From NCBI GenBank assembly GCA_001776775.1, contig MFDD01000015.1:7969-68022 (forward strand): DNA of 60,054 nucleotides, read 5' to 3'. How positions within the stretch are numbered: the first letter of the stretch is position 1; every line of letters starts with the position of its first letter. Shown here one piece after another: positions 4,110-60,054 of the stretch. The position numbers were made by a program, and so were the translations under genes. Source of the stretch: Candidatus Daviesbacteria bacterium RIFCSPHIGHO2_02_FULL_43_12 (GTDB lineage: Bacteria; Patescibacteriota; Microgenomatia; Daviesbacterales; UBA10151). Under the pieces are notes generated by a model. That model was not told where the DNA came from. It searched no databases and saw nothing but the letters and a program-made list of their open reading frames with translations.

Positions 4110-5896
4110 ATAAAGTTATGAACCAATCAGGACAGATAGTAATCCTAGCGCTGATAGCAGTCGCAGTTGTTTTAGTGAATGTATTGATTATTATTGGTGG
4201 CGGGCTTCTAGTCACCCAAAGTTCAACTAACTCTATTTCTCAGTCTCAGGCGATCAACTTAGCTGAGGCGGGTATTGATAAAGCCGTGGCTACACTTAAT
4301 GCTACTGCCGGCGCCTATACCGGAGAAGAAGAGATTCCGCTGGGTAATGGATCTTATTCGGTAACGATAACTTCTTTAAACCCGACTACAAAATCAATTC
4401 AGGCTACTGGATATATCCCAAGTAAAACTAATCCGGAGGCCCAAAAAACAGTTAAGATACAGGTTTCAAAGGGTATGGGGGCTGCCTTTAATTATGGGTT
4501 GCAAATTGGAGACGGTGGTTTAAGTATGTCTAATAATGCTGTAGTTAATGGTTCTGTTTATGCCAATTCCAATATTTCGATGTCCAATAATGCTCAGATT
4601 ACCGGGGACGCTTATGTCGGAGGGGGAATACAACCTACCGCTGATCAAACAAGCGACTGCTCAGAGTTAAACTGTGGAGATTTTCAGTTCGGAAGAACAG
4701 CAGGAGGGCAGCTGGATATAGCCCAGGGATTTAAGCCGAGTGAAACGACAGTCTTAAACAAGATCCTCCTAAAATTAAAAAAAGTTGGCACACCGCCTGA
4801 CCTGACAGTCAGGATACTTGGCGATCAAAATGGTACTCCAAATAAAAATTCAGTTTTAGCGTCAGCTACTTTAACTGCCGCTCTGACAACAACGGAGTAT
4901 GGCTTTGTCGATGTGATTTTTTCACCGGCGCCATCTCTGACTGTGGACACGCTTTATTGGATAGTGATAGACACCTCAGTAAATTCCACTAATTACTGGA
5001 ATTGGTCGATGGATACCCTGCAAGGTTACACCAGAGATAACCCATATTCTCCTCGGTGGTCTCCTAACTGGCAAGCATCTTCACCAACCTGGAGTCCTAT
5101 CCCCGGTGATTTAGGGTTTCAAACTTTTATGGGTGGAGTGACCACTTCTTTAATTGGGGCAAATAATGTTGTCATTGGTGGCAATGCCCATGCCAACACC
5201 CTGCAAGACCTGATCGTAACTGGTGGTGCTTATTATCAGACAGCTTCAAATGTTACAGCCGGGTCGATGCATCCTAATTCACCAGACCCAATTGCCCAAT
5301 CGATGTCCTTATCGGCTGCTAATATCCAGGAATGGAAAGATACTGCCACGGCCCTGAACGTATACACCGGAGACATTACCAACTGTCCAGCTGCTTTAGC
5401 TGCCGGTAAATATGTCGGAAATATATCACTTCCCTCTAACTGTATGGTGGTAGTTGACTCCCCGATCTATGTTACTGGAAACTTAACATTAGATGGAAAT
5501 GATGTTATTCAACTTAATCCGAGCTACGGAGTTTCGAGTGGAACTTTTATTGTTGATCAAATAATCACTTTTAATAGTGGGTCCGGAAACAAGATTTTAG
5601 GTACTTCATCTAACGGTAGTTATCTGATCTTAATCTCTGAATTTAACTCCCGCGAGATCTCGGATCATAAATCAGCCGTGGTTATTAATAATAATGGTAA
5701 TATCGGTATCCTTTATAGTAATCTAGGAGCGATTGATGTTTCTAATAATAATACCTTTACGAGTATTTCGGCCTGGAAACTAAATCTGGAGAATAATGTA
5801 ATCATCAACTATGACCAGGGCTTAGCCTCTGCGTTTTTTTCTTCAGGACCAAGCGGATCATATACAGTGGTTAAGGGAACATACCAGCTAAAGTAG
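4106..5896 (+). CDS. Large pilus-associated protein (PilX-N-like anchor plus beta-helix-like repeats)
   Basis: N-terminus SGQIVILALIAVAVVLV...QAINLAEAGIDKAV. Internal NNAVVNGSVYANSNISMSNNAQITGDAYVGG repeats are bactofilin/beta-helix-like. Last gene before pilM. Confidence 0.55.
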   Translation: MNKVMNQSGQIVILALIAVAVVLVNVLIIIGGGLLVTQSSTNSISQSQAINLAEAGIDKAVATLNATAGAYTGEEEIPLGNGSYSVTITSLNPTTKSIQATGYIPSKTNPEAQKTVKIQVSKGMGAAFNYGLQIGDGGLSMSNNAVVNGSVYANSNISMSNNAQITGDAYVGGGIQPTADQTSDCSELNCGDFQFGRTAGGQLDIAQGFKPSETTVLNKILLKLKKVGTPPDLTVRILGDQNGTPNKNSVLASATLTAALTTTEYGFVDVIFSPAPSLTVDTLYWIVIDTSVNSTNYWNWSMDTLQGYTRDNPYSPRWSPNWQASSPTWSPIPGDLGFQTFMGGVTTSLIGANNVVIGGNAHANTLQDLIVTGGAYYQTASNVTAGSMHPNSPDPIAQSMSLSAANIQEWKDTATALNVYTGDITNCPAALAAGKYVGNISLPSNCMVVVDSPIYVTGNLTLDGNDVIQLNPSYGVSSGTFIVDQIITFNSGSGNKILGTSSNGSYLILISEFNSREISDHKSAVVINNNGNIGILYSNLGAIDVSNNNTFTSISAWKLNLENNVIINYDQGLASAFFSSGPSGSYTVVKGTYQLK

Positions 5897-11406: not shown

Positions 11407-13551
11407 CTAATCTGGCATTACGCCTGATTGACCTGCTAATTTTCCCTTATAGTATGGGTATTTGTCAAGCTCAGGACTGGCTTTGAGCATTTCTTTGGCC
11501 ACACTCTTGGTTTTTTCTATCAGGGGTACATCTGATAATGAGGCTATTTTTAGATCCCACCGACCGGCTTGTTTAGTTCCAAAAAGCTGCCCTGAACCTC
11601 TGATTTTTAGATCAATTTCGGATAATTTCAGCCCGTCTGAGGAGTTTTCTAAATTTTTGAGTCTTTGGATCACAAAAGGGTCTTCTTGCTCGGTAAATAA
11701 TAAACAAAAAGATTCTTTCCCCCCTCTTCCAATCCGCCCCCTTAATTGATGAAGCTGGGCCAGACCAAACCGCTCAGCTCCCTCGATAACCATGATTGTA
11801 GCATTGGGCACATCCACCCCTACTTCTACAACCGATGTAGAGACCAATAAATCTATTTTACCTGCTTTAAATCTAGTGATGACCTCCTCTTTTTCCTTGG
11901 GCCTAAGCTTACCGTGCAAAAGTCCAAGCCGAAACTGGGGAAATATTTGGGCTTGAAGCTTCTCAAACTCCGCTTTGGCAGCTTTGGCGCTAACCAGAGT
12001 TTCTGATTCCTCGATAAGAGGAGTTACCAGATAGACCTGATCCCCTCCAGCGATTTTTTTAGTCATAAAAGCATACGCGTCAAGTCGTTTATGAGAAGGT
12101 ACATAATGAGTCTTAATAGGCTTTCGCCCTTTGGGTAGCTCCCCTATGACTGAGACATCTAAGTCGCCGTAGATAGTTAATGCCACAGTCCGCGGAATTG
12201 GAGTGGCGGTCATCGTGAGGAAATGAGGGGCTAGATTTTTAAGATTATTATTTTGTTGACGAAGGATGGTGCGCTGTTTGACCCCGAAACGCTGCTGTTC
12301 ATCGATGACCACCAAACCAACATTTTCTTTCAGTAGTTTTTCGGATAATAAAGCATGAGTTCCGACAATAACATTGGGATAGCTATTAGCTATTAGCTCG
12401 CCTCGCTTCGCGGTCGAAGCGGGCTGGGGGTCTCTAGCTTCAGAATCATTTGGACTGTCTTCTTGTTTGACTAATAGCTCCTGGCTAATAACTCCCGACT
12501 TCTGTTTATTGAATTTACTGCTCCCTGTATACAGCCCAACACTCATTCCGAGAGGTTCAAGCAACTTCTTTAAGCTAGAATAATGCTGCATGGCTAGTAT
12601 CTCGGTTGGAGCCATCAGCAGACTTCTTAAGTGATTTCTAAAAGAGAGATAAATAGCAATGGCCGCAACAACTGTTTTTCCTGATCCGACTTCGCCCTGA
12701 ATCAAGCGGTTCATCGCTTGAGGTTTTTGCAGATCTTCAATAATTTCCGCCAAAACTGTTTTCTGTCCGTGGGTTAGCTCAAAAGGCAGGGATGATGTAA
12801 AGGTAGTGAGATCTGACTCATTGATCTTAAAACCCTTGGCGCTTTGTTTTTGCTTCCAGTCAGCACGCCTTTTTTGGGTAGAGAGTTGAATTTCCAGTAG
12901 TTCATCAAAACCCAGACGCGTCTTGGCCAGGTTAATTTCGGTAAATGACCTGGGAAAATGAATAGTCTGCAACGCTTTGCCAAGAGAAAACATCGCTTCT
13001 TTATACTCCAGAGGCAGTGGATCGACCAGAGATCCGAGTACCAGCGGTAGTAATGAATTAATTTTATCTCTCAGCCACTTTGAGTTAACCCCAAATGTTT
13101 CAGGATACACTGGCACCAGCCGACCGGTATGGAGTCCGATGGAGTTTTCGATGATTTTTTCCCAAGTAGGAGAAACCATAGTCAGTTTATTTTGCCGGCG
13201 GTCAACCTTACCGGATACATGTAAAGTATCCCCGGAGAGGATATTTTTAATCAGCCATGCCTGATTAAACCAGACTAACTCAACTGAACCGGATCCATCA
13301 TTTAAAATTGCTCGGGTTAAAGTTTTACCATATCGGCTACTAGAATTTTGGATATTCCAGACCTGACCCTTGATCGTCACCTCTTGATCAATCGGTGCTT
13401 CGGAGATTCTAATGATCTTTGAGTAATCGTCATAGCGAAAGGGAAAGTGGTAGATTAAATCCAAAGCAGTCATGAGTCCTAACTTTTCGAGCCTTTTAGC
13501 AAAACTTGGACCGACCCCTTTTAACCTTGAAAGCGGTATTTGCAAATCCAT
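11407..13551 (-). CDS. recG: ATP-dependent DNA helicase RecG (carries an in-frame repeat insertion)
   Basis: Wedge/OB N-terminus, Walker A GEVGSGKT, DEQQRFG (DEQH-type box), TATPIPRT, ...QLRGRIGRG. Confidence 0.93.
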   Translation of the reverse strand: MDLQIPLSRLKGVGPSFAKRLEKLGLMTALDLIYHFPFRYDDYSKIIRISEAPIDQEVTIKGQVWNIQNSSSRYGKTLTRAILNDGSGSVELVWFNQAWLIKNILSGDTLHVSGKVDRRQNKLTMVSPTWEKIIENSIGLHTGRLVPVYPETFGVNSKWLRDKINSLLPLVLGSLVDPLPLEYKEAMFSLGKALQTIHFPRSFTEINLAKTRLGFDELLEIQLSTQKRRADWKQKQSAKGFKINESDLTTFTSSLPFELTHGQKTVLAEIIEDLQKPQAMNRLIQGEVGSGKTVVAAIAIYLSFRNHLRSLLMAPTEILAMQHYSSLKKLLEPLGMSVGLYTGSSKFNKQKSGVISQELLVKQEDSPNDSEARDPQPASTAKRGELIANSYPNVIVGTHALLSEKLLKENVGLVVIDEQQRFGVKQRTILRQQNNNLKNLAPHFLTMTATPIPRTVALTIYGDLDVSVIGELPKGRKPIKTHYVPSHKRLDAYAFMTKKIAGGDQVYLVTPLIEESETLVSAKAAKAEFEKLQAQIFPQFRLGLLHGKLRPKEKEEVITRFKAGKIDLLVSTSVVEVGVDVPNATIMVIEGAERFGLAQLHQLRGRIGRGGKESFCLLFTEQEDPFVIQRLKNLENSSDGLKLSEIDLKIRGSGQLFGTKQAGRWDLKIASLSDVPLIEKTKSVAKEMLKASPELDKYPYYKGKLAGQSGVMPD
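12381..12493. repeat. In-frame palindromic insertion element, copy 1 (inside recG)
   Basis: Ends are AGCTATT AGCTATT AGCT ... CTAATAGCT CCTGGCTAATA. GC-rich hairpin at 12402-12423. The 32-nt core 12395-12426 is identical to 21898-21929. Confidence 0.8.
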
Positions 13552-13590
13552 TTACCGAGATTATACACTTAAAGGGAGGTTAAAATTTAA

Positions 13591-13689
13591 AAGTTCAAAG
13601 TCAAAAGTAAATGTTGAAGTTGAAAAGTAAGGACCCTTTTGACTTTTGAATTGTATTTTTGACTTTTGAGTTTCGACTTTTAGCTTGCC
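13591..13689. repeat. Heptamer-word palindrome in the recG / 13690 divergent spacer
   Basis: AGTTCAA AGTCAAA AGTAAAT GTTGAAG TTGAAAA... faces ...TTTTGAC TTTTGAA ... TTTGACT TTTGAGT TTCGACT. Centre is near 13632. Confidence 0.65.
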
Positions 13690-14382
13690 ATGATTAATAA
13701 CGGACTTCTTTTAACAGGACTTTTCATAGTTGAGCTAATCTTTCTCTTTTTATTATCCCGGGGCATCACTACTTCTCTTTCGGCTATCTTCTATAAATTA
13801 AGCCATAATCAAATTTTTACTATTAACGCCTTGGCCCTCCTATTCTTACCAGGAACTGTTGTACATGAGCTGTCCCATATTTTTATGGCCGGGATGCTGA
13901 TGGTCCATGTTGGAGAGATGGAATTTATGCCCCAGGTAACCGCTGATGGAGTGAAGCTGGGTAGCGCAGAAATTGGACTGACGGATCCTTTTAGGAGAGC
14001 TTTAATCGGAGTCGCTCCTCTGATCTTTGGTACCTCCTTGATCTTAGCTATTTTGTGGTTTTTTAGTTCCTATCAGAACATCTATCTTCAAGTTTTAACT
14101 TTATTTATGATTTTCCAGATTGGAAATACGATGTTTTCCAGCAAGAAAGATCTCGAAGGTTTACTGGCTTTGTGTTTAACTCTGGGTATTTTTGGACTTT
14201 TGGGCTTTGGGGTAATTTACTTTTTACACCTATCTATCCCTTTTGGATTAATGGCCCAAAAGATCTTTACTCCTGGATATAGCGATTTTTTATTGCGCTG
14301 TGCAAAATATCTGCTTATCCCAATCGGCATAGATTTGGGGATTTTTGCAGTAGCGAGACTACTGCACAGTAAAGTCTCTTAG
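13690..14382 (+). CDS. Polytopic membrane protein with an HExxH motif (putative membrane metalloprotease)
   Basis: VVHELSHIFMAG next to a TM helix, and about 6 predicted hydrophobic segments. Family not identified. Confidence 0.5.
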   Translation: MINNGLLLTGLFIVELIFLFLLSRGITTSLSAIFYKLSHNQIFTINALALLFLPGTVVHELSHIFMAGMLMVHVGEMEFMPQVTADGVKLGSAEIGLTDPFRRALIGVAPLIFGTSLILAILWFFSSYQNIYLQVLTLFMIFQIGNTMFSSKKDLEGLLALCLTLGIFGLLGFGVIYFLHLSIPFGLMAQKIFTPGYSDFLLRCAKYLLIPIGIDLGIFAVARLLHSKVS

Positions 14383-14476
14383 TATATAAAAAGCGGCAGA
14401 ATAGAAGCCGCAATCATGCCTATACCAGCAATAATGGAGAGCGTGACCCAGATCCAGCGATATTTTTTTGTCATGG

Positions 14477-15625
14477 TTATTTAGAGAACTTACTACTTGT
14501 TAAGCTTTCCAGCTCATCTAAAGAAGCTTGTTTAATCGGATCTTCGAAACAAACCCTAACAGGTTTTAGTGTTTCGATTAACCAGTCCGCAACGGACGCC
14601 TTCAGATCCATCGGATGGAGTTTTTTCTTAGCGTAATCTTCTTCTAAATCTTCAAAAACAGAGTAAGCGATATCCCCTCCGAATTTTTCCGGACGGGTCA
14701 CAGAGAAAGTCGAATGCGAAGAATTAAAGATCAGATATTTAGTCCAATTTAAGAGAGGATTATTTTGAGTCACCCCTTCGGGGGCAAAGGCTTGGTTGAT
14801 CTTTTGTTTGATATCCTGCGGACTGTCATGCACAGAGACCGAACTATTAGCCTTGGATTTACTCATTTTGGTTCTCATCGCTACTTCATCTCTTTCCAGC
14901 GACCCATCGTCATGATTAGCAGACTCCTGGAAATCGAGACCAAGCAGAATCGGAGTATGGATGGCAATAGGTTTTAGCTGATTTCCCCGAGCATCTTTGA
15001 GCGGATAGGTTTTGATCTGCATCGCGGCGTCCCTGGCCACCACATGGACTTTTCGTTGGTCTATTCCCGCTTGGGCGATATTGGTTTGGAGCAAAAAAAT
15101 ATCGGCCGCTTGCATGATCGGATACATAATCTTGGCTGTTTCGATAGAGTCTTCAGCTGCTTCTCTGCCCATAATAGTGATTGATCTTTTGGAACGGGCC
15201 AGTGAGGTTGCTTTGGCTGTTTCAATAAAAGTCATCCAAAAATCCGGATGAGAAGCGTATTCCTCGGAGCAGAGTTTAAAAATTAATTTATTCGGATCTC
15301 CGCCGATAGATTCGAAAAGCACTTTCATGGCCGGAATAAAATAATTCTTAGCAACTCTTTTGATAGTTTCCAGGTTTCCCCCGAGTTTGTCATTTACTGC
15401 GGAGTGGTAGTCAGCCAACCAGATAATTGTCTCTGCCCCGGCTGCTTGAAGATCTTTAACCTTCATTAACTGGTAGAAATGGCCAATATGCAACTTTCCG
15501 GAAATTTCAAAACCAATGTAGTGTTTAAGGGGTGTACCGGAGTTAATTAATGAACGAAGCTCCTCTACTGTTAACGTTTCGGCTAAGTTTTTGGTGATCA
15601 AAGAGATTTTTTCATCGGTTGTCAT
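14477..15625 (-). CDS. tyrS: Tyrosyl-tRNA synthetase, archaeal/eukaryotic type (no C-terminal S4-like domain)
   Basis: HIGH box (LHIGH), KMSKS box, and blocks close to M. jannaschii TyrRS as I recall it: IGFE(I/P)SGK(L/I)H(I/L)GH, RPEKFGGD, LHPMDLK. The start is set at the Met matching the archaeal N-terminus; the ORF-track extension to 15766 is unlikely. Confidence 0.88.
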   Translation of the reverse strand: MTTDEKISLITKNLAETLTVEELRSLINSGTPLKHYIGFEISGKLHIGHFYQLMKVKDLQAAGAETIIWLADYHSAVNDKLGGNLETIKRVAKNYFIPAMKVLFESIGGDPNKLIFKLCSEEYASHPDFWMTFIETAKATSLARSKRSITIMGREAAEDSIETAKIMYPIMQAADIFLLQTNIAQAGIDQRKVHVVARDAAMQIKTYPLKDARGNQLKPIAIHTPILLGLDFQESANHDDGSLERDEVAMRTKMSKSKANSSVSVHDSPQDIKQKINQAFAPEGVTQNNPLLNWTKYLIFNSSHSTFSVTRPEKFGGDIAYSVFEDLEEDYAKKKLHPMDLKASVADWLIETLKPVRVCFEDPIKQASLDELESLTSSKFSK

Positions 15626-15747
15626 ACCTTCCGAATATATCATATAAAGAGACCCCCGAACAACGACAGCTTTAAGTTTTGGCGGCTTTGTCAAAGCTGG
15701 ACGAACTATTGACAACGAGCGCCTATCGTAGTAATCATGCAAGAGAT

Positions 15748-17319
15748 ATGAGCCAACTTTCACCAATCGCAGAGATGCTGATAACCGCCACCGATATCAC
15801 GGAGAAAAAAACTTACGCAGAAAATGTCTCTGTCAACCCTGTGGTAGCGGAAGTTGCTTCTTGGTATGAAAAGTTACGTAATGCCATGATTTATAAAGAA
15901 GACGAGGTTATTTTACGAACGGCCATCGAGCGAATCTTAAACAGGCGGCTGCTACTGGGAGGTAACACTGGCGAGGCTGTGGCCCGACCTTTGGTTAGAG
16001 AGCTAGTTTGGGCTCGCTATTTTCCAGACAGTAGCGTACCAGAGACTTTGGTAAAAAAAGTAGAGCTTTCAATTGATCTTCATCTGCATTTACAAAGGCT
16101 GATTCTACACTATCATAATTATAATCCCTCATCTGTTTATGAATGGATCCTCCAACTGCTGTCTTCTGACATTGAGAACATCTTGAGTTTGAAAAAAGAC
16201 CGAGAATTATTATCCAATTTTATGTTTCAGATTTTGAAAAGTAATGTCAGTATTATTGATGACCTTGAAGAAACAAAAGATGCCCAGGTTTTTATTAGTA
16301 TCCGCCGAGCTTTTGCCAAAGAAGATCTGGCTCTGCTGCGCTACCACCTGTTTGTTCAATTTTTTGGTCCCCTTTCAGAAATAAATGTGGAAAAAGTTGC
16401 TCAGGTCTTTGTCAAGTTAGTTAAGAAAATTGACGGACAGATAAAATATACGCTAAAGGAGCGGATTTACTCATACGTCAAAAACCAAAATGCCCCTTTT
16501 TTTATCCTTGAGGATTTGATTAAGCAGTACAGAGGAGAACTTCGGGAGCTGGTTCTGGATAAAGACCGCTTTGAAGCAGCTGTATTAGCAGCCTGTGCAA
16601 ATCGCTATAAAGATATTTTATCCAAGGTATCCAGAGCTATTTTTCGTTCGGTGATCTTTATTTTTATCACCAAAGTTTTTTTTGCCCTGGTTTTGGAAAG
16701 TACTTTTGAGAATTTAATCTTTGGTTCAATATCTTGGTCAGCTATTGCCATCAATACCCTGATGTCTCCCCTACTCATGATAATTGCCTCCTTGTTTATC
16801 CGTACTCCAGACAAGGATAATTCAAAGCGAATATTAGAGATGGTGAATGAACTGATGTTTGAGGCTGACCCGCACTTAACCGAGCCGCTTACTCTTGCGG
16901 TGCGTCCTAAAAATAGCCGGCCCTGGTTGCTGTTTATTTTCGGCTTACTTTGGTTTTTTGCGCTTGTCCTAGGAGTTCTGGGAATCAATACATTTTTAAG
17001 TGTCTTGCATTTTAATGTCTTAAGTAAAATAATCTTTATTTTGTTTTTAATGATTGTATCTTTCCTGTCTTATCGGATTAATCAAACTGCCAGGATGTAT
17101 ACGGTTAAGCAGGACAAAGAGAGCTTTATTTCAGTGCTTTTTGATTTCTTCCTGATGCCTTTTATTTGGATTGGCAAACAACTAACTCTAGGTATGTCTC
17201 AAATAAATATCATGCTTTTTATCTTCGACTTTTTGATCGAAACCCCATTTAAGTCACTGTTTGCCTTTTTTGAACATTGGTTTTTGTACCTTAAAACCCA
17301 GCGGGAAACACTGGACTAG
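15748..17319 (+). CDS. Unknown protein: soluble N-terminal half plus a multi-TM C-terminal half (start ATG 15748 or TTG 15679)
   Basis: Long ORF with several hydrophobic helices after about aa 320. No motif recognised. Confidence 0.5.
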   Translation: MSQLSPIAEMLITATDITEKKTYAENVSVNPVVAEVASWYEKLRNAMIYKEDEVILRTAIERILNRRLLLGGNTGEAVARPLVRELVWARYFPDSSVPETLVKKVELSIDLHLHLQRLILHYHNYNPSSVYEWILQLLSSDIENILSLKKDRELLSNFMFQILKSNVSIIDDLEETKDAQVFISIRRAFAKEDLALLRYHLFVQFFGPLSEINVEKVAQVFVKLVKKIDGQIKYTLKERIYSYVKNQNAPFFILEDLIKQYRGELRELVLDKDRFEAAVLAACANRYKDILSKVSRAIFRSVIFIFITKVFFALVLESTFENLIFGSISWSAIAINTLMSPLLMIIASLFIRTPDKDNSKRILEMVNELMFEADPHLTEPLTLAVRPKNSRPWLLFIFGLLWFFALVLGVLGINTFLSVLHFNVLSKIIFILFLMIVSFLSYRINQTARMYTVKQDKESFISVLFDFFLMPFIWIGKQLTLGMSQINIMLFIFDFLIETPFKSLFAFFEHWFLYLKTQRETLD

Positions 17320-31893: not shown

Positions 31894-31966
31894 CCTGCGG
31901 AGGCTGAACAGTTTAGGCGTTGGTCTGTAAAACCAATTTAAGTAGGTGCGACTCCTACCCGCAGGA
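31894..31966 (+). tRNA. tRNA-Tyr(GUA) candidate of archaeal/eukaryal design (C1:G72, A73, 5-nt variable loop), with atypical D and T loops
   Basis: Acceptor CCTGCGG/CCGCAGG. Anticodon arm TTGGT-CTGTAAA-ACCAA. T arm GTAGG-TGCGACT-CCTAC. Extended -10 TGgTATAAT at 31876-31884, ending 9 nt before the 5' end. The D loop lacks GG and T-loop position 55 is G. No encoded CCA. Confidence 0.55.
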
Positions 31967-31967
31967 C

Positions 31968-42409: not shown

Positions 42410-44164
42410 TTAAAGCCTTTGTTCGGTCTGTTCGCTAATTTGCTTGATAAAATCGGCAACCGGAGTAGCCCCGCGGTCTTCCCCATCTCTTGTCCGAACG
42501 GCAATAGCATTTGCTTCTTGTTCCCTATCTCCGATAATTAGCATATAGGGAATTTTATGCATTTGGGCTTCGCGGATCTTGGCTTGCATTTTTTCTCCCC
42601 TACTATCAATCTCTACCCGTATGTTCGCGTTCTTTAATTGTTCGAGTACTTTTTGGGCATATTCAATATGTCGATCCGTAATGGGTATAATTTTTACTTG
42701 AACAGGAGATAGCCAAACCGGAAAATTTCCGGCGGTATGTTCTATATATACCGACAAAAATCGTTCAATTGAACCCATCAGGGCAAAGTGAATCATCACC
42801 GGAGTTTGCTCCTTACCTTCTACATCAATATATTTCAGTTTAAAACGTTGAGGCTGGACAAAATCCAACTGAGGAGTAGCGAGCTGCCACTCTCTGCCAA
42901 TGGCATCCATAACCATAAAGTCTATCTTTGGACCATAAAAAGCTGCTTCTCCTTCGGCGACATAATAATCCAGCTGATGCTCGTTGGCTATCTTGAGTAA
43001 TATATCCTGAGCCTTGTCCCACAACTTGACATCTCCTAGATATTTTTCTGTCTGGGCGGGATCTCTAAAAGATAGACGGGCTTTGTAGGTCATCCCGAGA
43101 GTGCCATAAAACTCTTTGACAATCTCGATCAGTTCGGTATAAATAGCCTCGATCTGCTCGGGGGTACAAAAAATATGTGAGTCATCTTGGGTGACGGAGC
43201 GAACTCGAGACAAACCCAACAGTTCCCCCGCCTTCTCATCTCGGTAAATGGTTGTGGTTTCTAAATATTTAATCGGTAAATCTTTGTAGCTTCTCGTTTG
43301 GGAGGCAAAAATTTGCTGATGATGTGGACAGTTCATCGGCTTCACGACTAGCTGTTCGGTAGTTTCTTGGCTGGTTACTAAAAATAGCTCTTTTCCAAAT
43401 TTAGCCCAATGTCCGGATGTTTCATAAAGCTTTTTATTAGTAATATGCGGAATCCATACTTTCTGAAAACCTTTATCTATCCGAAGTTCTTGGGAAAAGT
43501 TATTTAAAGCTTCGCGAAGAACTGTTCCTTTGGGGGTAAAAAGAGGCAGGCCCTTGCCAACTAAATCTGAAAATACAAACAGATCCAGCTCCTTACCCAG
43601 TTTTCGATGATCCCGTTTTTTGGCCTGTTCCAGCTGCCAAAGATATTTGTCGAGCTCCTCTTGGGTTGGAAAGGCTGTGCCGTAAATTCGAGTTAGCATC
43701 TTATTTTTTTCATCCCCGTGCCAATAGGCTCCAGCCAGAGAGAGTAGTTTAAATGGTCCAACCTTTCCAGTCGACTCAACATGCGGACCTTTACAAATGT
43801 CAACAAAAGACTCTGAAGCATCTTTTCCTTGGATAGTATAAATACTGACCTGCTCGCCTCGCTTATCTGCCTCTTGGGCCCATTCAAGCTTATATGAGTT
43901 ATGAGCAAAAGCTTTTTTGACCTCATCTACCGACATGGTACTATGTAAAATGGGCAGGTCAAGCTCAATAATCCGCTGCATCTCTTGTTCTATTTTTGGA
44001 AAATCCTCCTCGGATATCTTTCCAGAGAAGTCAAAATCGAAGTAAAAGCCCTCCTCGGTTGCTGGGCCCATGGCGGCCAGTAAACCAGGAAAGAGCTTGA
44101 TCATTACCATAGTTAAGATATGCTCACAACTATGGCGCATTGGTTCTAATTTTTTACTGTTCAT
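42410..44164 (-). CDS. thrS: Threonyl-tRNA synthetase lacking the N-terminal TGS domain
   Basis: Begins at the editing-domain HSCEH motif. Class II core (...RVRSVTQDDSHIF...), C-terminal anticodon-binding domain. 584 aa. Confidence 0.95.
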   Translation of the reverse strand: MNSKKLEPMRHSCEHILTMVMIKLFPGLLAAMGPATEEGFYFDFDFSGKISEEDFPKIEQEMQRIIELDLPILHSTMSVDEVKKAFAHNSYKLEWAQEADKRGEQVSIYTIQGKDASESFVDICKGPHVESTGKVGPFKLLSLAGAYWHGDEKNKMLTRIYGTAFPTQEELDKYLWQLEQAKKRDHRKLGKELDLFVFSDLVGKGLPLFTPKGTVLREALNNFSQELRIDKGFQKVWIPHITNKKLYETSGHWAKFGKELFLVTSQETTEQLVVKPMNCPHHQQIFASQTRSYKDLPIKYLETTTIYRDEKAGELLGLSRVRSVTQDDSHIFCTPEQIEAIYTELIEIVKEFYGTLGMTYKARLSFRDPAQTEKYLGDVKLWDKAQDILLKIANEHQLDYYVAEGEAAFYGPKIDFMVMDAIGREWQLATPQLDFVQPQRFKLKYIDVEGKEQTPVMIHFALMGSIERFLSVYIEHTAGNFPVWLSPVQVKIIPITDRHIEYAQKVLEQLKNANIRVEIDSRGEKMQAKIREAQMHKIPYMLIIGDREQEANAIAVRTRDGEDRGATPVADFIKQISEQTEQRL

Positions 44165-44235
44165 AGTTTCAATATATCAGAAAGATCTTACTTTGTAGAG
44201 TAAGACAGCTAGCTTCCGTCAAACTCTACGCTTAG

Positions 44236-44412
44236 TTAAGGATGATTTTCGTATCCTCTCCTAATAACCTCGGGTCCTGAGCGAGCAACAAACTCGCGCC
44301 ACTCTTGGTTAAAACGAGCTTTCTCAGCTATTTTAAAGGCCTTTCTTTCTAATCTAGACCTCTTCCTCTCGGGTTGACCTGATTGATAGCCCGCGCTTAC
44401 TCCTTCTGGCAT
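44236..44412 (-). CDS. 58-aa basic protein (below the ORF-track cutoff) with a strong SD, between the T-box-like leader and thrS
   Basis: AAAGGAGGTGA, then 6 nt, then ATG (44412). Translates as MPEGVSAGYQSGQPERKRSRLERKAFKIAEKARFNQEWREFVARSGPEVIRRGYENHP*. Stop at 44236-44238. Confidence 0.5.
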   Translation of the reverse strand: MPEGVSAGYQSGQPERKRSRLERKAFKIAEKARFNQEWREFVARSGPEVIRRGYENHP

Positions 44413-44430
44413 TAACTATCACCTCCTTTC

Positions 44431-44454
44431 AAAAAGACCTCCTTGCGGAGGTCT
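44431..44454 (-). terminator. Intrinsic-terminator-like hairpin immediately upstream of the 58-aa ORF's SD
   Basis: Minus-sense AGACCUCC-GCAA-GGAGGUCU followed by UUUU. Two upstream CCUCC copies could form an alternative pairing. Confidence 0.5.
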
Positions 44455-44543
44455 ACTCTGTGGAGGTTTTGTCAAACCACTACAAAGTACGCCCCCGGAA
44501 GGGTGTAGTAGTGGTAGTAGTTTTTCTATTAACTTTAAGCATT

Positions 44544-44713
44544 AAAAAATCCCTCCATTCATCAATCTGATGAATTTCGGGACCGGTTAAGGTGGTTCCA
44601 CCCGTAATTATTCTCTTTGACTTTAACGGAAGTTCTACCGAGAAGCTCCTAAGTTGGTGAGGCTTAATCAACACTTCTGAAAGAATTATACGAGGAGCTT
44701 ACCTTAAAGTCAA
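44544..44713 (-). promoter_or_regulatory. T-box-like riboswitch leader (promoter, short specifier hairpin, antiterminator, terminator)
   Basis: Read on the minus strand. Promoter: TTGACT (44713-44708), 17-nt spacer, TATAAT (44690-44685). ACC-A at 44658-44655. AAUUAC-GGGUGGAACCACC. Antiterminator: CGGG (44604-01) / 7-nt bulge UGGAACC (44600-44594) / ACC-UUAACC-GGU / CCCG (44581-78). The competing terminator 44581-44551 (8-bp AUUCAUCA/UGAUGAAU core) is followed by a U6 tract at 44549-44544. Confidence 0.6.
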
Positions 44714-59937: not shown

Positions 59938-60020
59938 GCCCAAGTGGTGGAATGGTAGACACGTACGCTTCAGGTGCGTATGACCGTAAGGTTGTGGAGG
60001 TTCAACTCCTCTCTTGGGCA
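59938..60020 (+). tRNA. tRNA-Leu(CAG)
   Basis: GCCCAAG acceptor, anticodon arm TACGC-TTCAGGT-GCGTA, long variable arm, T loop TTCAACT, discriminator A. Confidence 0.9.
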
Positions 60021-60054
60021 CATTATCAATCTTGTAATTCGGTAAATATTCGGG

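Follow-up and report, generated by a model that had tools for sequence, protein, structure and literature searches.

The leader of thrS, the threonyl-tRNA synthetase gene, in a 60-kb stretch of Candidatus Daviesbacteria DNA probably acts as a two-stage gate on the charging of tRNA-Thr, in which a minimal transcriptional T-box is followed by a ribosome-mediated attenuator. This stretch, referred to here as the window, corresponds over its full 60 kb to contig MFDI01000035.1 of the metagenome-assembled genome (MAG) GCA_001777105.1, and the features described below are on its minus strand unless marked otherwise. The leader sequence is identical across three independently assembled contigs and is therefore real DNA and no assembly artefact. 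More tentatively, and with less confidence than in the gate itself, we propose that this is the first T-box wired in series with a leader-peptide attenuator, giving an AND gate on both charging states of tRNA-Thr(GGU), that its terminator (terminator 1) doubles as a sequestrator of the Shine-Dalgarno (SD) sequence of the leader open reading frame (ORF), and that the T-box represents an undescribed minimal architecture widespread in Patescibacteria; alternatively or additionally, the leader may be a living intermediate between T-box and leader-peptide control.

An earlier note on this DNA had described a compact T-box-like element upstream of thrS, and each sequence feature that it listed was located on the minus strand at the coordinates it gave (Table 1). 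In a local search with the Rfam T-box model RF00230 the element is the top match (26.9 bits, E=5.7e-4), and the alignment runs from one end of the model to the other, with deletions in place of distal Stem I, Stem II and Stem III. The element is ~135 nucleotides (nt) long as against 219 model positions. Stem I is very short, as the note had said, and ends in the 9-nt specifier loop. At its base, where the Rfam alignment also puts the GA motif, the sequence has the pattern of a kink-turn (K-turn), with a C-stem GAAGU/GCUUC, a 3-nt bulge GUU and tandem G.A/A.G pairs. The predicted specifier, ACC followed by A, is borne out and lies in the terminal loop of the UUAAG/CUUAG hairpin. The distal platform (AG bulge and distal loop) is absent, 76 model positions being reduced to 9 nt in the Rfam alignment. 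Likewise, Stem II with its S-turn is reduced from 27 model positions to the single nucleotide U44641, between Stem I and Stem IIA. The H-type pseudoknot of the Stem IIA/B type that follows contains an F-box-like CCGUUA (44629-44624), and the Rfam alignment matches its CGG..CCGUUA. The next segment is a purine-rich linker, whose counterpart in relatives reads 'AAGnG - Stem III hairpin - AA'. It includes the purine string AAAGAGAAUAA but accommodates no Stem III hairpin; both covariance-model alignments have gaps at this point, 17 Stem III positions being reduced to 1 in that of Rfam. Most class members, L001 and L056 among them, do have this hairpin (L numbers denote the relatives' loci introduced below).

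The T-box core sequence of the window is AAUUACGGGUGGAACCACC. It folds into the antiterminator that the earlier note had drawn, with the same A1 and A2 helices, UGGAACC bulge and 6-nt loop, all read at the expected positions. The predicted terminator is also present: the 3' strand of A1 serves as its 5' strand, with CCCG common to both, and it ends in U6. Terminator 1 and the antiterminator have folding energies of -13.2 and -6.6 kcal/mol, respectively, a difference that would be expected of an antiterminator in need of a stabilising ligand. Set beside the features that define RF00230, the element has the core, the ACC-A specifier, the K-turn, the IIA/B pseudoknot and a mutually exclusive terminator; it lacks a score at the gathering level, a distal Stem I, Stem II and the Stem III hairpin.

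Comparative evidence was drawn from 160 thrS loci of the Candidate Phyla Radiation (CPR; Patescibacteria), which left 134 non-redundant upstream regions after removal of duplicates. The best 160 relatives by ThrS were all Patescibacteria/CPR, and the closest ThrS in a genome scan and a metagenome scan, from Candidatus Woykebacteria, has 73% identity. A covariance model (R1) was built from 18 short-Stem-I CPR thrS leaders, the window being excluded. With this model, 44574-44676(-) is the sole significant match in the 60 kb on both strands (31.3 bits, E~2e-6). Among the relatives' loci, the matches of R1 are all on the thrS strand and, except for a weak one in L106 (E=0.068), all upstream of thrS; they include loci that had been left out of model building. 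The thrS context given by the earlier note holds well beyond the window, with thrS 3' of the leader here and homologous elements upstream of thrS across many CPR lineages.

The motif GGGUGGAACC is found just upstream of thrS in many of the 160 loci, and the full core (A1, UGGNACC and A2) in 32 of the 134 upstream regions. The bulge is UGGA in 31 of these 32 cores, and the A1 sequences are diverse (CGGG, GCCCGG, UUGCGA, GUAGGA, AGUCGC and others). One thrS T-box, in L141 (~4886), has a UGGG bulge and not UGGA, which would predict a tRNA-Thr with C73 (or U73 through wobble). In the alignment of the 18 mini T-boxes, again with the window excluded, ACCA and UGG.ACC are invariant, and RNAalifold finds compensatory changes at 13 of 13 A1/A2 pairs in the relatives.

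RNAalifold, run on a MAFFT alignment, recovered the antiterminator and did not recover Stem I, because the loop lengths differ. Stem I consequently rests on hairpin detection in each sequence with codon and shuffle controls, a procedure that is partly circular for the Stem I pairing itself. In the mini class it is a plain hairpin with a 7-11-nt loop ending in ACC-A(A/C/G); of 31 T-box loci examined, 19 have a hairpin loop with ACC-A at its 3' end, and the best unrelated triplet reaches 9. Furthermore, ~14 of 22 mini T-boxes have a similarly placed pseudoknot, and 21 of the 22 beat their own shuffled linkers (mean 8.0 vs 4.7). On this comparative evidence from sequence, the element in the window is a genuine T-box homologue. 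With regard to termination, the window has the canonical design in which the terminator shares a strand with A1, unlike ten other loci (L056, L058, L071, L075, L082, L086, L141, L143, L159 and L028). In those, A1 is preceded by the 5' strand of the terminator, which belongs to Stem III or to the pseudoknot's 3' strand, and the partner of that 5' strand is a repeat after A1 that is followed by a U-run; hence the terminator there competes with Stem III or the pseudoknot and not with A1.

The UGGA bulge predicts U73 at the discriminator position of the cognate tRNA-Thr. Only two tRNA-Thr are present among the 160 loci, those of L150 (CGU) and L151 (GGU), and both end in U-CCA. The U73 of these two CPR relatives is consistent with the prediction, as indirect evidence.

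Between the T-box and thrS lies a second element. The earlier note had placed a further ~130 nt and a 58-aa ORF there; both are present, and the 130 nt hold a predicted ribosome-dependent Thr attenuator and are not a spacer, so that its description of the leader was incomplete while its T-box part stands. The 20-codon leader ORF contains six consecutive Thr codons, ACU ACU ACC ACU ACU ACA (44521-44504), the sole run of at least five ACN triplets in the 60 kb on both strands. Its SD, GGAGGG (44556-44551), is 8 nt upstream of the AUG and within the 3' strand of terminator 1; in folding, its GGG belongs to the stem of the terminator form and is released in the antiterminated one. No promoter fits between the U6 of terminator 1 and the leader ORF, since the AUG begins 2 nt past U6.

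Downstream, the RNA is bistable. The attenuator region folds better than its shuffles (z=-5.1) and has two near-isoenergetic conformers. The first, 1:2, pairs the Thr codons with GUAGUGGU and ACCC with GGGG and has, together with the terminator, -34.6 kcal/mol. The second, 2:3, pairs CCUU.CGGGGG..UACUUUGU with ACAGAGUA..CCUCCG.AAGG at -35.4 kcal/mol and uses up the 5' strand of the terminator. In the nascent RNA, 1:2 forms before region 3 exists. When the footprint of a ribosome was blocked in the folding, an A site on Thr1-3 left 0 terminator pairs, and positions from Thr4 to the stop codon left 7-8. The second element comprises a translatable ORF with a Thr run, a downstream intrinsic terminator, an antiterminator that depends computationally on ribosome position, and, as described below, recurrence at thrS. 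No curated Rfam leader family matched; Phe_leader gave only a chance-level match (17.5 bits, E=3.8, 44428-44498). A terminator scanner reported neither terminator on the minus strand; terminator 1 has an internal loop, and terminator 2 presumably falls short of the 5 or more T that the scanner requires behind a stem.

Table 1. Features of the thrS leader and its surroundings in the window, in the order of transcription.
Feature	Position	Strand	Description
Promoter P1	44685..44713	-	TTGACT 44713-44708, 17-nt spacer, TATAAT 44690-44685; 11/12 matches
T-box Stem I, ultrashort	44642..44677	-	K-turn, then UUAAG/CUUAG 5-bp stem and specifier loop; from direct reading and Rfam alignment
Specifier loop	44654..44662	-	CCUCACCAA, 9-nt terminal loop; Thr codon ACC 44658-44656, then purine A 44655
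Stem IIA/B-type pseudoknot, H-type	44620..44640	-	IIA CGG/CCG, loop UAGAACUU; IIB ACUU with AAGU 44623-44620
Purine-rich linker	44605..44618	-	AAAGAGAAUAAUUA; at the place of the relatives' Stem III hairpin
Antiterminator	44578..44604	-	A1 CGGG/CCCG, bulge UGGAACC 44600-44594, A2 ACC/GGU, 6-nt loop UUAACC
Terminator 1	44544..44581	-	CCC-GAA-AUUCAUCA-GAU-UGAUGAAU-GGA-GGG, then A + U6 (44549-44544)
Leader ORF	44480..44542	-	MLKVNRKTTTTTTPFRGRTL; 20 codons, AUG 44542-44540, stop UAG 44482-44480
Attenuator region 2	44476..44502	-	CCUUCCGGGGGCGUACUUUGUAGUGGU; pairs with Thr-codon region 1 (ACCACUACUAC.ACCC) or region 3
Attenuator region 3	44441..44461	-	ACAGAGUAGACCUCCGCAAGG; pairs with region 2 (antiterminator) or is the 5' strand of terminator 2
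Terminator 2	44430..44454	-	AGACCUCC-GCAA-GGAGGUCU and U-run (five U in a row); -14.5 kcal/mol
Strong SD and 58-aa ORF	44236..44429	-	SD AAAGGAGGUGAU 44429-44418, ORF 44412-44236; orphan, no Thr residue
Hairpin and promoter-like site	44171..44229	-	GUAGAGU..GACGGAAGCUAGCUGUC..ACUCUAC 44229-44195; TCTACA-17-TGATATATT 44199-44171
thrS	42410..44164	-	584 aa; then infC, rpmI, rplT

Thr leader peptides recur at CPR thrS genes. A short ORF with at least 4 consecutive Thr codons lies upstream of thrS in 16 of the 134 regions, the window included; in the same regions the next amino acid, Leu, gives 2 such runs and Thr on the reverse strand gives 0. The relatives' leaders form textbook 1:2, 2:3 and 3:4 structures with U-run terminators. 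Automated ribosome-block folding gave a stall-dependent pattern in 6 of 12 of them, the rest being confounded, as in L007, where an earlier U-run was taken as the terminator. In nine loci (L007, L016, L022, L030, L042, L055, L068, L105 and L145) the Thr leader ORF starts 7-8 nt after a TATAAT-like box, so these leader peptides look leaderless; the leader ORF of the window differs, its SD being embedded in the T-box terminator. The -10 region of the window promoter P1, GTATAATTCTTTCA, resembles that of L030, GTATAATTCTTTTCA. The 15 other CPR lineages with a Thr leader are all without a T-box, the loci with a T-box are all without a Thr leader, and only the window has both. Closer relatives that might share the tandem were not found in the genome or metagenome scans, where ThrS identity tops at 73%.

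A transcript from P1 would pass two Thr checkpoints in series before reaching the 58-aa ORF and thrS-infC-rpmI-rplT. The near-consensus promoter noted earlier is indeed present (11/12 matches), and the start site predicted from it, near A44678/G44677, falls at the Stem I base. At the first checkpoint, the ACC of Stem I would pair with the anticodon of tRNA-Thr(GGU), and the uncharged U73-CCA end with the bulge UGGA, which would stabilise the weak antiterminator against terminator 1. Read-through would also free the leader SD, which is otherwise partly locked. At the second, scarce Thr-tRNA would make a ribosome on MLKVNRKTTTTTT... stall at the first Thr codons, and the stall would free region 2 to pair with region 3 and so block terminator 2. 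With plentiful Thr-tRNA, the ribosome would enter region 2 and reach the stop codon, and terminator 2 would form. In an untranslated leader, 1:2 would form first and terminator 2 after it, so that leak-through from terminator 1 would be caught. Assuming standard wobble decoding, five of the six Thr codons (ACU, ACC) would be read by the same GGU isoacceptor as the specifier, and the leader would thereby sample the uncharged and charged forms of one tRNA. Because both terminators are intact and each blocks the output of the other, P1 would be useless unless both were conditionally bypassed. We infer the tRNA binding, both termination events, the ribosome stalling and the AND-gate action of the two stages from this arrangement.

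Several observations weigh against a working two-stage gate. The missing distal Stem I, Stem II and Stem III are the main evidence against function, and they are also the main structural novelty. Transcriptional T-boxes generally need a long Stem I, whose elbow-binding distal part is reported essential; the Stem II S-turn is reported essential when Stem I is short, and an antiterminator without Stem III showed no appreciable tRNA binding (PMC7583486). The cmsearch check with the Rfam T-box model that the earlier note proposed yielded the weak local match of 26.9 bits and no match at the gathering score (93 bits) anywhere in the window, a threshold missed widely; the absence of a covariance-model match, which the note had named as refuting, thus holds only in half. 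All 11 CPR thrS T-box loci tested miss the threshold as well, which probably explains why we found no report of CPR T-boxes. The organism's own tRNA-Thr was found neither in the window nor in 10-kb extensions at both ends, taken from longer contigs of the same organism, and the evidence for U73 comes from L150 and L151 only, both without a T-box. As to the attenuator, block folding relieves termination only when the stall is at Thr1, Thr2 or Thr3 of the six-codon run, and the equilibrium model also loses the terminator at early non-Thr positions, which implies that kinetics matter. The tandem occurs in no other lineage of the 134 regions and so has no evolutionary replication. Moreover, the promoter-like site directly upstream of thrS could let thrS expression largely bypass the leader.

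Some of the same observations would also fit a sensor replacement caught midway, in which the attenuator works and the T-box is a decaying remnant, unresponsive to tRNA, that lost Stem III after Stem II and distal Stem I. Most class members keep the Stem III hairpin that is missing here; recognition of the discriminator is reported to need Stem III, and a short Stem I to need Stem II (PMC7583486). CPR thrS genes alternate between T-box and leader peptide among lineages, and switches between species are documented for hisS (PMC2965389). We nevertheless consider this history unlikely. Terminator 1 is intact and the leader ORF is transcribed only through it, so a dead T-box would silence the attenuator too. 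No decay is seen in the core, specifier, K-turn or pseudoknot, and L140 and L159 are likewise without Stem III, yet their T-box is the sole visible regulator of their thrS. That only the T-box functions, with the Thr-rich ORF and second hairpin a relic or coincidence and terminator 2 leaky or a constitutive damper, seems to us less likely again. The restriction of the tandem to the window's lineage would agree with it, and the use of an SD here, where the relatives' leaders look leaderless, could point to a non-orthologous accident. Against such an accident stand the run of six Thr codons, unique in the 60 kb, within an SD-bearing ORF of 20 codons, the z=-5.1 fold with its two near-isoenergetic conformers and with a geometry that tracks ribosome position, and the same device upstream of thrS in 15 other lineages.

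By far the least probable explanation is that the region codes for the 64-aa hypothetical protein annotated at 44674-44480 (GTG start) and that the RNA motifs arose by chance. Two NCBI MAG records carry this ORF, which spans the T-box, the terminator and the leader ORF; it matches no Pfam family, its start lies inside Stem I, and an intrinsic terminator with U6 falls within it. In addition, it overlaps the covariance-model match, whose homologues elsewhere are non-coding and vary by compensatory changes. The annotation is probably a spurious call.

The gene order on the minus strand is a 171-aa ORF, the promoter, the leader, the 58-aa ORF, thrS, infC, rpmI, rplT, two ORFs and pheS. For the 58-aa ORF there was no Pfam match and no homologue besides itself. 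Other loci also have ORFs or inserts between T-box and thrS (a 181-aa ORF in L157, 3967-4682; one of ~68 aa in L140; a ~700-nt insert in L045), which indicates that insertion of passenger genes into this leader is recurrent. The promoter-like site between the 58-aa ORF and thrS has an extended -10 (TGnTATATT) and ends 7 nt before the thrS AUG (7-8 nt when L008 is included). The core of the overlapping hairpin, GACGGA[A/C]GCUAGCUGUC, holds the palindrome AGCUAGCU and is, among the 160 loci, common only to the window and L008 (~4700-4800). This site is possibly a second promoter (P2) that would give a basal leaderless thrS mRNA, or an operator. An operator of the E. coli ThrRS type, mimicking the anticodon arm of tRNA-Thr, was rejected, as the 7-nt loop AAGCUAG has GCU and not NGU at the anticodon.

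Two further observations concern tRNA genes in and just beyond the window. A tRNA-Tyr(GUA) at 31894-31967 (+) is 73-74 nt long; its variable arm is short and its first pair is C1-G72, both of the archaeal/eukaryal type. In bacteria, tRNA-Tyr normally has a long variable arm and G1-C72. The region past the tRNA-Leu(CAG) at the window edge (59938-60021) is covered by longer contigs of the same organism (L169/L170, ~12150-16200). There, just outside the right end of the window, comes a tRNA-Leu(GAG) whose sequence overlaps a serine recombinase (resolvase) gene at that gene's end, and further out are a Replic_Relax-like gene and a copper-oxidase cluster. This suggests that the region past the right end is an integrated mobile element, which would explain the contig break there.

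About a quarter of the sampled CPR thrS genes carry the T-box core, and T-boxes appear to be unreported in this group: we found no report of them in the Candidate Phyla Radiation/Patescibacteria among the papers searched, and the TBDB paper is without mention of them. Nor did a literature search find a report of a T-box and a leader-peptide attenuator on one transcript. A minimal T-box coupled to a terminator would serve as nature's own test of how little tRNA recognition requires and, if true, would challenge current views of what T-boxes require for tRNA binding. Two mechanistically different sensors of one tRNA on one transcript would also be a new composite logic. Furthermore, the leader offers a testable model for the replacement of T-box and leader peptide by one another in evolution, a pattern long noted and unexplained (PMC2965389).

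Among known systems, the T-boxes of Bacillus subtilis thrS and thrZ are alike in the gene, in the Thr specifier followed by a purine, in UGGN-ACC between A1 and A2, in the terminator that shares A1, in the K-turn at the base of Stem I and in the IIA/B pseudoknot with an F-box-like CCGUUA. In contrast to these, the window has no distal platform, Stem II or Stem III, falls below the Rfam threshold, and carries its specifier in a terminal hairpin loop and not in an internal loop. The thrZ leader consists of tandem T-boxes, whereas the window pairs a T-box with a leader-peptide attenuator.

The earlier note had likened the element to the ultrashort ileS T-boxes of actinobacteria (M. tuberculosis, N. 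farcinica), and the analogy holds for the truncated Stem I, which is cut just above the specifier and has no elbow platform, and for the retained K-turn and IIA/B pseudoknot (PMC7583486). It does not extend to the rest of the structure: the actinobacterial elements keep Stem III as well as the S-turn of Stem II, without which they do not bind tRNA, and act on translation through SD sequestration (PMC7583486), whereas in the window both Stem II and Stem III are missing and an intrinsic terminator closes the element. The glyQS T-boxes share with the window the lack of Stem II and a relatively strong specifier-anticodon pairing (two G-C pairs in ACC:GGU, three in GGC:GCC); unlike the window, they keep Stem III and a long Stem I with platform.

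Rfam leader families are lineage-specific. The second element resembles E. coli thrL, trpL and pheM (pheST) and Streptomyces thrL-thrS (PMC8079986) in its short ORF of regulatory codons, its 1:2, 2:3 and 3:4 hairpins and its intrinsic terminator, and pheM and Streptomyces thrL, like the window leader, precede aminoacyl-tRNA synthetase genes. The Streptomyces leader is a weak proposal, with only two Thr codons and no clear terminator (PMC8079986). The window differs from thrL, trpL and pheM in that it has no sequence relation to them and no Rfam leader match, is found in CPR, and has a leader that would be fed by T-box read-through, with the SD inside the T-box terminator. Tandem riboswitches likewise place two attenuators in series on one leader. 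Alternation of T-box and leader peptide between species is known, for example at hisS, with the alternatives in different genomes or paralogues (PMC2965389), whereas the window has both sensors on one transcript and for the same tRNA species.

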